Shown here: positions 314-48,292 of the stretch, in pieces
Layout: every line of letters begins with the position of its first letter
Position numbering within the stretch: position 1 is the first letter of the stretch
Assembly (NCBI RefSeq): GCF_022846255.1
Contig: NZ_AP025682.1
DNA: 64,000 nt
Source of the DNA: Escherichia coli
GTDB lineage: Bacteria; Pseudomonadota; Gammaproteobacteria; Enterobacterales; Enterobacteriaceae
Direction: 5' to 3' (one strand)
Notes under the pieces: model-generated
What the model was told of the DNA's origin: nothing
What the model saw: the letters and a program-made list of their open reading frames with translations, nothing else
Database searches by the model: none
Position numbers and translations under genes: made by a program

Positions 314-3274
<2,961 letters not shown>

Positions 3275-3799
3275 TTGTCATCCCTCCTCAGGGACGTAAT
3301 AAGTTGATCCATCAATTATCAATGCATAGAAAACATATTATGTTTCGCGTTGACGATTATGCGGCGTTATAGAGGAATGGTTCAATTATTCTTTCCCCTA
3401 AGTCCGATTGCGGACATATATAAAGCACGTGAACACACACACAGAAAGAAATAACAAAAACACAATATTTCAATACGTTAATGAAAGCGTTAATTTTAAA
3501 ACATAGGCCATGAAAATATAAAACAACCAAAACAGACAAATAATGTATCAATAAGCAATGAACTTTAAGTCATTCACTTTTTGAAAACGTCACCAAATCT
3601 CCAAAAACAATAATCTATAGCTATAAATAAAAATTAAAAATATTTTCAATGAATATAAATTTATTGCTATTTCTATTACAAAGATGTCCTGACCTCTCAT
3701 TCATTCTCTTCTTGTCAACATCGCGACAACTTTCGTAAAACATCCCCACCCTGCTTCAGGTATACTATGCCCCTCGATTCCACAAACATCAGGCAGACC

Positions 3800-4774
3800 A
3801 TGACAGATTTAATCCAACGCCCTCGTCGCCTGCGCAAATCTCCTGCGCTGCGCGCTATGTTTGAAGAGACAACACTTAGCCTTAACGACCTGGTGTTGCC
3901 GATCTTTGTTGAAGAAGAAATTGACGACTACAAAGCCGTTGAAGCCATGCCAGGCGTGATGCGCATTCCAGAGAAACATCTGGCACGCGAAATTGAACGC
4001 ATCGCCAACGCCGGTATTCGTTCCGTGATGACTTTCGGCATCTCTCACCATACCGATGAAACCGGCAGCGACGCCTGGCGGGAAGATGGACTGGTGGCGC
4101 GTATGTCGCGCATCTGCAAGCAGACTGTGCCAGAAATGATCGTCATGTCAGACACTTGTTTCTGTGAATACACTTCTCACGGTCACTGCGGTGTGCTGTG
4201 CGAGCATGGCGTCGACAACGACGCGACTCTGGAAAATTTAGGCAAGCAAGCCGTGGTTGCAGCTGCTGCAGGCGCAGATTTCATCGCCCCTTCCGCCGCG
4301 ATGGACGGCCAGGTACAGGCGATTCGCCAGGCGCTGGACGCTGCGGGCTTTAAAGATACGGCGATTATGTCGTATTCGACCAAGTTCGCCTCCTCCTTTT
4401 ATGGCCCGTTCCGTGAAGCTGCCGGAAGCGCATTAAAAGGCGACCGCAAAAGCTATCAGATGAACCCAATGAACCGTCGTGAGGCGATTCGTGAGTCACT
4501 GCTGGATGAAGCCCAGGGCGCAGACTGCCTGATGGTTAAACCTGCTGGAGCGTACCTCGACATCGTGCGTGAGCTGCGTGAACGTACTGAATTGCCGATT
4601 GGCGCGTATCAGGTGAGCGGTGAGTACGCGATGATTAAGTTCGCCGCGCTGGCGGGTGCTATAGATGAAGAGAAAGTCGTGCTCGAAAGCTTAGGTTCGA
4701 TTAAGCGTGCGGGTGCGGATCTGATTTTCAGCTACTTTGCGCTGGATTTGGCTGAGAAGAAGATTCTGCGTTAA
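3800..4774 (+). CDS. hemB: porphobilinogen synthase (delta-aminolevulinate dehydratase)
   Basis: Translation from ATG 3800 ([24 protein letters not shown]...) matches HemB, 324 aa; ORF-track start at 3767 is an upstream extension. Confidence 0.93.
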
Positions 4775-7265: not shown

Positions 7266-8228
7266 TTATTGCACGAAGCGCGAGGTAACGTACTGGCTGT
7301 AATCATTCGCTACAGCCGGGACTTTGCCCTGCTCTTTCAAAAACTGCGCGGTGTCGATGATCGCTTTGTTCACCGGTCCGGTCAGTTCTGCCGTTTGCTG
7401 CTGCGGCGTCAGATAGGTATTCCCCTTCACCAGCCCCGGAATGTCACCTTCCGGCACGCCGCTTAACCGCGCCAGTTTGCTGATGTTTTCCGGCTGTTTC
7501 AGCCACGCGTCTGGGTTAGCAATGTACGGTTGCTGAGCATCGATGGCGCTTTTAGCGAACGCTTTCACGACCTCAGGATGTTTCTCGGCAAAATCTTTCC
7601 GCACGACCCAGACGTCCAGTGTCGGCGCGCCCCACTGCCCGACCTGTTCAGAATCGGTCAGCACCTTGCCATCTTTTTCCAGGGCGTTAACCGCCGGTGC
7701 CCAGACATAAGCACCATCAATATCTCCCCGCTGCCATGCGGCGATAATTGCGGGCGGCTGCAGGTTCACAATCTCAACTTGCCCAGGTTTAATACCCCAG
7801 TGTTTCAGCGCCGCCAGCAGGCTGTAGTGGGTGGTGGAGATAAACGGTACGGCGATGCGTTTACCAATCAAGTCTTCCGGTTTACTGATAGTTTTCTTTA
7901 CCACCAGCGCTTCGGAGTTACCCAGTTTTGACGCCAGCAAGAAGACTTCAATCGGCACCTGTTGGCTGGTTGCAACCGCTAACGGGCTGGAACCGAGGTT
8001 GCCGATTTGCACGTCGCCCGAAGCCAGCGCCCGCACGATGCTGGCTCCACTGTCAAACTTACGCCAGTCCACGGTTGCTCCGCTTTCTTTAGCAAAGGTG
8101 TTGTCGGCCTGAGCCACTTTCGCCGGTTCGGCGGAGGTTTGATACGCCACGGTGACGTTCACCGCCTGCGCCTGAAAAGCGATGAATGCCAGTGCGGCAA
8201 GAAATGTGTTACGCGATGAAATTGCCAT
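7266..8228 (-). CDS. tauA: taurine ABC transporter periplasmic binding protein
   Basis: 320 aa with signal peptide MAISSRNTFLAALAFIAFQAQA. Confidence 0.95.
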   Translation of the reverse strand: MAISSRNTFLAALAFIAFQAQAVNVTVAYQTSAEPAKVAQADNTFAKESGATVDWRKFDSGASIVRALASGDVQIGNLGSSPLAVATSQQVPIEVFLLASKLGNSEALVVKKTISKPEDLIGKRIAVPFISTTHYSLLAALKHWGIKPGQVEIVNLQPPAIIAAWQRGDIDGAYVWAPAVNALEKDGKVLTDSEQVGQWGAPTLDVWVVRKDFAEKHPEVVKAFAKSAIDAQQPYIANPDAWLKQPENISKLARLSGVPEGDIPGLVKGNTYLTPQQQTAELTGPVNKAIIDTAQFLKEQGKVPAVANDYSQYVTSRFVQ

Positions 8229-8456
8229 GATTGTCTGCTCCCTTGTCTTGTTATGGGAGCAGTATTTCGTTGCGGGTAAGTTTGATAAAGGAATTAAAAC
8301 GTCTTGTTAATAACAAAGCGTTTTTAGAAAAAAATCGGCAATGGTTAGCGAGTTTGCGCATTTTGCTACTTTTAACAAACATCGCCTGATGTGGCGCTCA
8401 CGCCTCTTATCATGCCTACAAATACAGGGGCCGGATAAATTTTATTCTCCAGTGTT

Positions 8457-8511
8457 ATATACTATAGGGGGGTATGCATTGACATATAGCATACCCCCCT
8501 ATAGTATATTG
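8457..8511. promoter_or_regulatory. frmRAB promoter-operator: palindrome ATACTATAGGGGGGTATGC-N9-GCATACCCCCCTATAGTAT
   Basis: Near-perfect inverted repeat with G6/C6 tracts 25-75 bp upstream of the frmR ATG; this is the operator architecture of the RcnR/FrmR/CsoR family. Confidence 0.7.
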
Positions 8512-8533
8512 CATGCAGATGATGAGGTGCGAA

Positions 8534-8809
8534 ATGCCCAGTACTCCGGAAGAGAAGAAAAAGGTCCTTACTCGAGTTCGTCGTATTCGGGGGCAGATTG
8601 ATGCTCTGGAACGGTCGCTGGAGGGTGATGCCGAATGCCGTGCCATACTCCAACAGATCGCTGCCGTTCGGGGCGCGGCTAACGGGCTGATGGCAGAAGT
8701 GCTTGAAAGCCATATCCGGGAAACGTTTGACCGAAATGACTGCTACAGCCGCGAAGTCAGCCAATCCGTTGACGACACTATTGAACTGGTTCGTGCCTAT
8801 CTTAAATAG
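8534..8809 (+). CDS. frmR: formaldehyde-responsive transcriptional repressor
   Basis: 91 aa from ATG 8534 ([29 protein letters not shown]...). Confidence 0.92.
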
Positions 8810-8813
8810 CTGA

Positions 8814-9953
<1,140 letters not shown>

Positions 9954-10044: not shown

Positions 10045-10878
10045 ATGGAACTCATTGAAAAACATGCCAGCTTTGGCGGCTGGCAAAATGTGTATCGGCA
10101 TTATTCCCCATCACTGAAATGTGAAATGAATGTCGGCGTCTATCTCCCGCCAAAAGCCGCAAATGAAAAATTGCCGGTGTTGTACTGGCTTTCAGGCCTG
10201 ACCTGCAACGAGCAAAATTTCATTACTAAATCGGGGATGCAGCGTTACGCGGCTGAGCACAACATTATTGTTGTTGCGCCGGACACCAGTCCGCGAGGCA
10301 GTCATGTCGCAGATGCTGACCGTTACGATCTCGGGCAAGGTGCCGGATTTTACCTGAACGCGACGCAAGCGCCGTGGAATGAACATTACAAAATGTATGA
10401 CTATATCCGCAACGAGCTGCCGGATTTAGTGATGCAACATTTTCCGGCAACGACCAGAAAGTCTATCTCAGGTCATTCTATGGGCGGGCTGGGCGCGCTG
10501 GTGCTGGCGTTACGTAACCCAGATGAATATGTCAGCGTCTCGGCGTTTTCGCCCATTGTCTCCCCATCGCAAGTACCGTGGGGACAGCAAGCCTTTACCG
10601 CATATCTTGGTGAAAATAAAGAAGCCTGGTTGGATTACGACCCGGTGAGTCTTATTTCACAAGGTCAACGCGTTGCGGAAATAATGGTTGATCAGGGGTT
10701 GAGTGATGATTTTTACGCAGAACAGCTGCGGACTTCAAATCTTGAAAAGATCTGCCAGGAGATGAATATCAAGACGTTAATCCGTTATCACGAGGGTTAT
10801 GATCACAGCTATTATTTTGTCTCCAGTTTTATTGGCGAGCATATTGCGTACCACGCCAATAAACTGAATATGCGTTGA
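10045..10878 (+). CDS. frmB: S-formylglutathione hydrolase
   Basis: 277 aa esterase with GHSMGG serine motif. Confidence 0.95.
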   Translation: MELIEKHASFGGWQNVYRHYSPSLKCEMNVGVYLPPKAANEKLPVLYWLSGLTCNEQNFITKSGMQRYAAEHNIIVVAPDTSPRGSHVADADRYDLGQGAGFYLNATQAPWNEHYKMYDYIRNELPDLVMQHFPATTRKSISGHSMGGLGALVLALRNPDEYVSVSAFSPIVSPSQVPWGQQAFTAYLGENKEAWLDYDPVSLISQGQRVAEIMVDQGLSDDFYAEQLRTSNLEKICQEMNIKTLIRYHEGYDHSYYFVSSFIGEHIAYHANKLNMR

Positions 10879-10880
10879 GC

Positions 10881-11094
<214 letters not shown>

Positions 11095-21599: not shown

Positions 21600-24783
<3,184 letters not shown>

Positions 24784-29418: not shown

Positions 29419-29574
29419 GAAATTCCCCCTTTTTGCTGTTTGAAACCCAAAAAATCCGCCGCATTCTATTCATCTGAAGATAAAAAGCAATCGTTTTCGT
29501 AGGGGGATATATTTTTTATATGAATGAGTGCAAAAAGGCGGGGGAAACTTATCTGTGTAAAAACAGTGGGTAGG

Positions 29575-29650
29575 CATGATAAGACGCGTCAGCGTCGCAT
29601 CAGGCATCTGCGCACGGTGTCGGATGCGGCGCGAGCGCCTTATCCGACCT
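29575..29650. repeat. REP pair between codB promoter region and prpE 3' end
   Basis: GATAAGACGCGTCAGCGTCGCATCAGGC ... GTCGGATGCGGCGCGAGCGCCTTATCCGACC. Confidence 0.75.
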
Positions 29651-34271: not shown

Positions 34272-34374
34272 GTCGGATGCGACGCTATGCGTCTTATCCG
34301 ACCTACAGTTCAGTTCACCTCGTAGGCCTGATAAGTCGCGTCAGCGGCGCATCAGGCATCGGTTGTCGAATACA
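34272..34374. repeat. REP pair between prpC and prpB
   Basis: GTCGGATGCGACGCTATGCGTCTTATCCGACCTAC ... GTAGGCCTGATAAGTCGCGTCAGCGGCGCATCAGGC. Confidence 0.75.
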
Positions 34375-42245: not shown

Positions 42246-43722
42246 TTACCACCTCCGCAATCCTGGCCTGAGAACTGCTGTCAGGCAGGAAGCTATGGGT
42301 GATCTGACCTTTTTGCATTACCAAAATCCGGTGGCTTTGATACCACGCTTCTTCAATTTCATCGCAGATCATCAATACCGCAATGCCATGAGCCGCCAGA
42401 TCGCTGATAATGCCGTATATTCCTGCTTTGTTGGCGATATCAACACCGACTGTCGGGCTATCGAGAATCAACAGTCGTGGCCCAATCGCCAGCCATTTGG
42501 CGATCGATACTCGCTGCGCGTTACCACCAGAAAGCGTATTCACCGGGAGATGTGGGTCAGAGACTTTGATGGTCAATGCCTTGATTAGCCTGTCCACCAG
42601 GTCACGCACTTTAGCTTCACTCAGAAAGCCGAAGCGATCTTTTACCTTGTGAAAAACAGTGCTAATGATGTTGTCTTCAATAGATTGCGCCATCACCAAA
42701 CCGCGCGACATGCGATCTTCCGAAACATAACCAATACCGTGGCGGATGGCGTCCTGGTTACTATGCAGTGTAACCGGCTGACCGTTGATGAGGATCTCGC
42801 CAGCATCCGGTCGGGTCATACCAAACAGACTCAGACATAATTCCGTGCGCCCCGCACCAAGCAGGCCAATAATCGACACCACTTCGCCCGCTTCCACCCG
42901 CAAGTTAATATTTTGATATTCCCCATGACGACTTAAATTACGCACCTCCAGCACTGGGATGCTGGATTTTCCCTGCCACAACTCTCGTACCTGATATTCA
43001 AACTCCTGGCCGGTCATCAGGAAACCGAGTTGTTTTGTGGTCATCTCTGCAGCCGGAAAGGTCCCGACCAGCTCACCATCTTTCAGCACTGAAATACGGT
43101 CGGAAACTTCCATCACCTCTTCCAGACGATGACTGACGAAGACCACGCAGATCCCGCGTTCCCGCAATTGATGCACCACCTGTAATAACCCTTGCACTTC
43201 CTGATGGGTCAGCGAAGCGGTTGGTTCATCCATCACAATCAACCGTGCGTCCTGCGCCAGTGCACGGCAAATTGCCACCAGCTGACAGCGGGCAATTGAA
43301 AGCTCAGAAACGAGCGTATCCAGTGGCAATGTGACGTTAACACTGGTCATTGCCGCCTGCGCCACCTCACGCAGACGACGTCGGTTAACAAACAGACCGT
43401 GGTGATAGTGATTCACGGCGATATTCTCCCAGACACTCAGGTTAGGAAATAAAGAGAGGTCCTGATAAATCACCTGAATCCCCTGCGCCACCGAAGCGGC
43501 GGGTGTCAGCTTTGACCAGTTTTTCCCACCAAGCGTAATTTCCGCTCCCTCATCCGGGCGATAAACACCGGACATAATTTTAATCAACGTCGATTTACCA
43601 CAGCCGTTTTGCCCGGCAAGGCAGTGCACTTCACCCGACATAAAGTCGAGAGAAACATCGCGCAGCGCTCGCGTGGCATGAAACGTTTTGTTGATATGAC
43701 GAAGGGAAAGGAAGGTTTCCAT
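42238..43722 (-). CDS. sugar ABC transporter ATP-binding protein with two fused ABC domains (RbsA/LsrA-like)
   Basis: From ATG 43722 (METFLSLRHINKTF...), preceded by AGGGGA; Walker A GQNGCGKST, second domain GLLGAGRTEL, signature LSGGNAQR. Confidence 0.85.
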   Translation of the reverse strand: METFLSLRHINKTFHATRALRDVSLDFMSGEVHCLAGQNGCGKSTLIKIMSGVYRPDEGAEITLGGKNWSKLTPAASVAQGIQVIYQDLSLFPNLSVWENIAVNHYHHGLFVNRRRLREVAQAAMTSVNVTLPLDTLVSELSIARCQLVAICRALAQDARLIVMDEPTASLTHQEVQGLLQVVHQLRERGICVVFVSHRLEEVMEVSDRISVLKDGELVGTFPAAEMTTKQLGFLMTGQEFEYQVRELWQGKSSIPVLEVRNLSRHGEYQNINLRVEAGEVVSIIGLLGAGRTELCLSLFGMTRPDAGEILINGQPVTLHSNQDAIRHGIGYVSEDRMSRGLVMAQSIEDNIISTVFHKVKDRFGFLSEAKVRDLVDRLIKALTIKVSDPHLPVNTLSGGNAQRVSIAKWLAIGPRLLILDSPTVGVDIANKAGIYGIISDLAAHGIAVLMICDEIEEAWYQSHRILVMQKGQITHSFLPDSSSQARIAEVVNG

Positions 43723-48104: not shown

Positions 48105-48292
48105 CAGACTGCCTGATGCGCTACGCTTATCAGGCCTACAGATTCTTGCGCCACTCGTAGGCCGGATAAGGCGTTCACGCCGCATCCGGCTGTGGTGGCC
48201 AATGCCTGAAGCGCCACGCTTATCAGGCCTACAGATTTCCGCGCCATTCGTAGGCCGGATAAGGCGTTCACGCCGCATCCGGCAGAAACAAC
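48105..48292. repeat. tandem REP/BIME cluster between yahI and yahG
   Basis: Two ~95-bp units, each CTGATGCGCTACGCTTATCAGGCCTACAG...GTAGGCCGGATAAGGCGTTCACGCCGCATCCGGC. Confidence 0.8.

Follow-up and report, generated by a model that had tools for sequence, protein, structure and literature searches.

Gene context and promoter

The stretch of Escherichia coli DNA analyzed here (64 kb in length, the window below) carries the frmRAB operon next to a tauA gene of opposite orientation:

7266–8228, minus strand: tauA, divergent upstream neighbor of frmR
8534–8809, plus strand: frmR, autoregulated repressor of the DUF156/CsoR-RcnR family, 91 aa (PF02583 match, 82 bits)
8844–9953, plus strand: frmA, S-(hydroxymethyl)glutathione dehydrogenase, co-transcribed target
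10045–10878, plus strand: frmB, S-formylglutathione hydrolase, co-transcribed target

FrmR of the window is 100% identical to FrmR of K-12, and all 91 residues are matched to the solved structure of E. coli FrmR (PDB entry 5LBM, E=4e-55). The regulator of an FrmR operator is expected to have the formaldehyde-sensing residues Pro2 and Cys35, and both are present here together with His60 (MPSTPEE...AEC35R...SH60). The start of frmR lies 25 nt downstream of the right arm of a long palindrome, which is organized as follows:

8457–8477, plus strand: left (promoter-distal) arm, ATATACTATAGGGGGGTATGC
8459–8475, plus strand: predicted distal type I FrmR site, ATAC-TATAGGGGG-GTAT, with the G6 tract, at about -53 to -37 relative to the predicted start of transcription
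8478–8488, plus strand: spacer of 11 nt, ATTGACATATA, carrying the -35 TTGACA
8479–8484, plus strand: -35 hexamer TTGACA, consensus, in the palindrome spacer
8489–8509, plus strand: right (promoter-proximal) arm, GCATACCCCCCTATAGTATAT
8491–8507, plus strand: predicted proximal type I FrmR site, ATAC-CCCCCTATA-GTAT, with the C6 tract, filling the -35/-10 spacer and overlapping the -10
8502–8507, plus strand: -10 hexamer TAGTAT, in the right arm, 17 nt after the -35 (10 of 12 consensus matches)

The -35/-10 pair inside the palindrome is the sole promoter-like site in a promoter scan of 8150–8900. Transcription is predicted to start at about 8512–8514. Denby et al. (2016; Sci Rep 6:38879, PMC5146963) centered the large inverted repeat of the K-12 frm promoter (Pfrm) at -29, which places the start near 8512.

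A perfect palindrome with two inverted type I sites

The two arms of the inverted repeat are 21 nt each and 100% complementary. An earlier note, made from the sequence alone, had described a near-perfect palindrome over the frmR promoter, at 8457–8511, with 19-bp arms and an N9 spacer. The inverted repeat is indeed present, with the -35 in its spacer and the -10 in its right arm, and it begins at 8457 as described; it ends at 8509 rather than 8511, the arms are longer (21 nt) and the spacer is 11 nt. Among perfect inverted repeats of the 64-kb window with a spacer of up to 30 nt, it is the longest, and the runner-up, at the lac operator, has arms of only 13 nt. In 40 first-order Markov resamples of the window the longest arm is 9–13 nt and never exceeds 13 nt, and analytically 4.5e-7 arms of 21 nt are expected per window. 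These two results rule out a chance origin of the palindrome. As a single strand the stretch folds with -22.2 kcal/mol (z = -7.2), and an Rfam search over the palindrome gives no family match.

The pattern ATAC-N9-GTAT occurs exactly twice in the 64 kb, once in each arm. The G6 tract occupies 8467–8472 and the C6 tract 8494–8499, and the site centers, at 8467 and 8499, are 32 bp apart. The ATA/TAT sequences immediately around each G/C tract are likewise inverted. A type I operator of the CsoR/RcnR (DUF156) family is defined by an uninterrupted G/C tract of 3–8 bp (PMC5146963), and both G6 and C6 are of this kind. Each tract is flanked by ATAC and GTAT, as in type I operators, and the structure lies in the promoter of an operon for a DUF156 regulator, with the -35 and -10 inside it and frmR downstream. 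The assignment of the G6/C6 tracts to an operator of the RcnR/CsoR/FrmR type, also made in the earlier note, is borne out by the PF02583 FrmR gene downstream and by the work of Denby et al. (PMC5146963). The reading of the palindrome, which covers the frmR promoter, as an RcnR/CsoR-type operator for FrmR is therefore supported. We consider it very probable that the palindrome serves the frmRAB promoter as its operator, that it consists of two inverted 17-bp type I sites of the CsoR/RcnR family, and that FrmR bound to it represses the operon and is released by formaldehyde.

Comparison with K-12, RcnR and Salmonella operators

The operator in the window is already known: publications of 2016 describe it and its architecture, as well as the structure of the repressor and the formaldehyde mechanism. 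K-12 Pfrm was described with tandem type I sites with ATAC/GTAT repeats (PMC5146963). The K-12 and window promoters share the locus, the large inverted repeat, the two ATAC-N9-GTAT type I sites and a -35 between them. Alignment with the K-12 frmR promoter, proposed in the earlier note as a check, shows the sequence to be identical from 8431 to the frmR ATG save one base: at 8490 K-12 has GAATAC and the window GCATAC, and the palindrome is interrupted in K-12 while it is perfect over 21 nt in the window. The palindrome is intact here, as had been stated. The upstream neighbor is tauA in the window and yaiO in K-12. We count a center-to-center distance of 32 bp in the window, compared with 31 given in PMC5146963.

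FrmR binds K-12 Pfrm with a Kd of about 220 nM, whereas that for control DNA is about 3600 nM (PMC5146963), as measured in vitro on the K-12 allele (GAATAC), which differs from that of the window (GCATAC) by one operator base at 8490, outside the 17-bp core. Formaldehyde dissociates FrmR from K-12 Pfrm, in-vitro transcription from this promoter is repressed by FrmR and the repression is reversed by formaldehyde, and a mechanism with a methylene bridge between Pro2 and Cys35 was described (PMC5146963). A base-resolution footprint of E. coli FrmR on Pfrm was not found in the literature examined, and the word "footprint" is absent from PMC5146963. Formaldehyde biosensors already use Pfrm as a standard part, and the operator matters little as a discovery. 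A Sort-Seq study of Pfrm was reportedly done by Rohlhill in 2017; two reviews that cite this study contain nothing at the level of single bases.

The operator of E. coli RcnR, which lies between rcnR and rcnA, also has two sites, of the form TACT-G6-N-AGTA (cited in PMC5146963). Its flanking repeat is TACT/AGTA, whereas that of the FrmR operator is ATAC/GTAT; the site centers are 19 bp apart, compared with 32 bp in the window; and RcnR responds to metal (Ni/Co), while FrmR responds to formaldehyde (PMC5146963). The frmRA operator of Salmonella Typhimurium is similar in that the frmR promoter has a C6 tract between inverted T/A-rich flanks and FrmR is formaldehyde-responsive (PMC4528141, PMC5016687), and two tetramers bind per operator (PMC5016687). 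In Salmonella, FrmR no longer binds when one of the T/A-rich flanks of the C6 site is mutated (Osman 2016, PMC5016687). However, the Salmonella operator has one G/C tract instead of two inverted sites, and the protein is only 52% identical. According to Osman et al. (2015 and 2016; PMC4528141, PMC5016687), the operator-promoter sequence is "distinct" and lies at a different place in the genome.

Proposed mode of repression

When formaldehyde is absent, tetramers of FrmR would occupy both sites, presumably one tetramer per site. The -35 is located between the two sites, directly next to the distal one, and the proximal one takes up the -35/-10 spacer and extends into the -10; jointly they would span roughly -55 to -3 of a sigma-70 promoter close to consensus. 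With the promoter covered in this way, RNA polymerase would be shut out, probably by steric occlusion, so that frmR, frmA and frmB are kept off (negative autoregulation). Formaldehyde would then cross-link Pro2 to Cys35 between FrmR subunits, remodel the DNA-binding face, release the protein and de-repress the operon. We infer the contacted bases, the stoichiometry in E. coli and the repression by steric occlusion. The simplest model is that of two independent sites jointly blanketing this region.

Conservation across FrmR homologues

A scan of species-representative genomes gives 80 loci with FrmR homologues of 52–100% identity. An exact ATAC-N9-GTAT is found within 100 bp upstream in 65 of the 80, in three proteobacterial classes. 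The 8,000 bp directly upstream of the 80 homologues contain 83 exact sites (10.4 per kb), compared with 5 sites in the 396,901 bp of the remainder of the loci (0.0126 per kb, for a random expectation of 0.0153 per kb), an upstream enrichment of about 800-fold. The consensus of the proximal site is ATAC-TCCCC-TATA-GTAT-AT. This site is near-universal among the loci, occurs in gamma-, beta- and alpha-proteobacteria, and in most cases is joined to a -35 of sequence TTGACA. The inverted distal site is found, among the 80 loci, only in Escherichia, Pantoea, Edwardsiella, Enterobacter, Providencia, Morganella, Serratia, Aeromonas and Deefgea. Erwinia also has a second site, arranged as a direct and not an inverted repeat. 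All two-site genera have the -35 between the sites, whose centers are 32–35 bp apart. In our reading, Enterobacterales and their relatives acquired the inverted distal site later.

The palindrome could also act as one unit, with a single FrmR tetramer gripping both arms or with a cruciform as the regulatory or bound form. The arms are perfectly identical throughout Escherichia, some tract changes between lineages are mirrored in both arms (GGGGGG/CCCCCC in one, GTGGAG/CTCCAC in another), the single strand folds with the energy and z score given above, and the separation of the sites might let both faces of one tetramer engage (PMC5146963). However, most FrmR homologues have the proximal site alone, so one site is enough for the family. 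The other two-site genera vary in spacing, Erwinia has direct repeats, and outside Escherichia the arms match each other at only 11–19 of 21 positions, so that perfect symmetry is no functional requirement. An 11-nt loop and an AT-rich stem base also make a poor cruciform candidate unless supercoiling is strong, and the K-12 allele is fully regulated despite its imperfect arm (PMC5146963). We find action as one unit very unlikely. Strict arm-to-arm covariation, which would point to selection on the palindrome and not on two sites, is weakly supported outside Escherichia, with 0–3 mirrored and 2–10 unmirrored differences per locus.

A related idea is that the Escherichia arms are strictly identical (21/21) through concerted evolution and that the palindromic superstructure matters, because of either a sandwiched single tetramer or quasi-palindrome template-switch correction; the distal copy would be a lineage-specific innovation, and the K-12 allele slightly defective. 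We think this unlikely. If it were true, the distal inverted copy would change how sensitively or cooperatively the formaldehyde switch responds.

Two further groups of loci were observed in the same scan. A frmRAB cassette whose FrmA is about 93–95% identical to that of E. coli is present on an Edwardsiella plasmid and in Pantoea, Enterobacter, Providencia, Morganella, Serratia and Aeromonas (L016, L017, L019, L021–L024, L026 and L027 in our numbering of the loci). Its operator has two sites with centers 34–35 bp apart, and the tracts are typically GTGGAG/CTCCAC rather than G6/C6. The cassette looks to have spread horizontally. In a Citrobacter freundii MAG (L015), Klebsiella grimontii (L018) and Maribrevibacterium harenarium (L020), at about 2380–4613, a 91%-identical FrmR is found with no frmA after it. 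The next ORF, about 690 bp downstream of frmR, is an iron-containing alcohol dehydrogenase (PF00465/PF25137), and the operator is diverged, with the proximal site ATACTCCGAYGCAGTAT. These three unrelated hosts have nearly the same upstream sequence, which suggests a mobile unit.

Upstream boundary and variable region

Homology to K-12 upstream of frmR starts at 8431, with the boundary at 8430|8431. Two features lie next to it:

8384–8419, plus strand: degenerate Z-type REP (blastn-short), on the tauA side of the boundary and not part of the operator
8431–8456, plus strand: conserved 26-bp stretch from the boundary to the palindrome, common to the yaiO, fbpC and tauA contexts

The upstream contexts were compared using window 8229–8533 and the loci L001 (K-12), L003 (O157:H7), L010, L012 and L014. 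Three contexts with approximately the same boundary are found in E. coli: yaiO (K-12, NU14 and 118UI), fbpC (O157:H7) and tauA (the window; 593 genomes). In other words, the variable region upstream of Pfrm has three states, the yaiO-yaiS block, a ferric-transporter block with fbpC, or nothing, with tauA adjacent. This variable region stops 26 bp short of the operator. The earlier note had placed the palindrome exactly at the junction where the K-12 yaiO-yaiS block is missing. The palindrome is indeed near this junction, although not exactly at it, being separated from it by the 26-bp stretch. The presumed loss of the block from the window does not hold up well. The gene tauA adjoins frmR in E. 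albertii (L010) and in Escherichia sp. E1V33 (L012) as well, and the 305-bp tauA-frmR spacer of both aligns with the window without gaps at 96% column identity. Since these genomes share the adjacency, the K-12 yaiO-yaiX::IS2-yaiP-ykiC-yaiS segment is more likely an insertion than a loss in the window. From the sequences compared, the state without a block is probably ancestral.

The Z-type REP ends 11 bp before the boundary and is also present in E. albertii and E1V33. It is 83–89% identical to REP copies at 29570–29605, 11046–11081 and 34322–34357. On the promoter side of tauA, K-12 and the window differ strongly beyond about 8275.

The strong stem-loop potential of the palindrome, and the fact that yaiO is co-directional with frmR in K-12-type genomes, could point to a transcription terminator or insulator against read-through into frmRAB. 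This is scarcely credible. A scan of 8150–8900 gives 0 terminator-like sites, and no T-run follows the stem, the right arm being followed by TGCATGCAG; the palindrome lacks the combination of a GC-rich stem and a T-run that marks an intrinsic (rho-independent) terminator. In K-12 a GC-rich hairpin belonging to yaiO itself lies further upstream, and the palindrome is unchanged beside divergent tauA in the window, E. albertii and E1V33.

Alleles and copy number in E. coli

The exact 53-bp palindrome is found in 3,554 of 5,426 complete E. coli genomes. The K-12 form, with A instead of C at 8490, is found in 1,033 genomes in a search likewise restricted to the 53 bp; the change is adjacent to the proximal 17-mer and breaks the arm. 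The perfect 21-nt palindrome is the majority E. coli allele, and the K-12 laboratory allele has a one-base flaw. A rare perfect allele (266 genomes with a 76-bp query) was considered and rejected; the query reached past the palindrome and included position 8514, where an A/G polymorphism is common. This polymorphism adjoins the predicted frmR start (TTGCATGC versus TTGCGTGC) and is the most frequent Pfrm difference in an alignment of 10 E. coli sequences, with G in 6 and A in 4.

The yaiO, fbpC and tauA contexts share a boundary just 26 bp from the palindrome, and one might take the palindrome for a mobile-element end or a recombination scar of the adjoining variable region. Copy number in 5,134 E. 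coli genomes argues against this: the palindrome is essentially single-copy, with a median of one place per matching genome and a highest count of 2, it lies upstream of frmR at all loci examined, and just 2 of 5,135 places are on plasmid records. The multiple dispersed copies per genome of a REP/BIME or of a dispersed or terminal repeat are not seen. Furthermore, the position relative to frmR is fixed in distant genera, the promoter hexamers are inside the palindrome, and the boundary is outside it, with the REP element nearer to the boundary. We regard such an origin as extremely improbable.

In the 42.9-kb record NZ_CP195335.1 the frmR promoter palindrome is located at the extreme end, at 42697–42772. 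This match may be one of the two "plasmid" places, and it could be an assembly fragment instead of a true plasmid copy.

Other observations in the window

The lac promoter/operator at 21640–21745 has five differences from K-12. There is a T to G change in the -35/-10 spacer, and a G to A change at -1 (TGTGTGAAATTG) gives perfect 13-nt outer arms, 21664–21676 and 21686–21698, around lacO1. In the lac Shine-Dalgarno region AGGAAACAGCT is changed to AGGATACAGCT, and lacZ has two synonymous changes relative to K-12. The Rfam family naRNA4 (RF02564) matches above the gathering score at 10948–11026 (minus strand), 29573–29649 (minus strand) and 48160–48229 (plus strand). These matches coincide with REP/BIME clusters, such as the one between frmB and yaiL.
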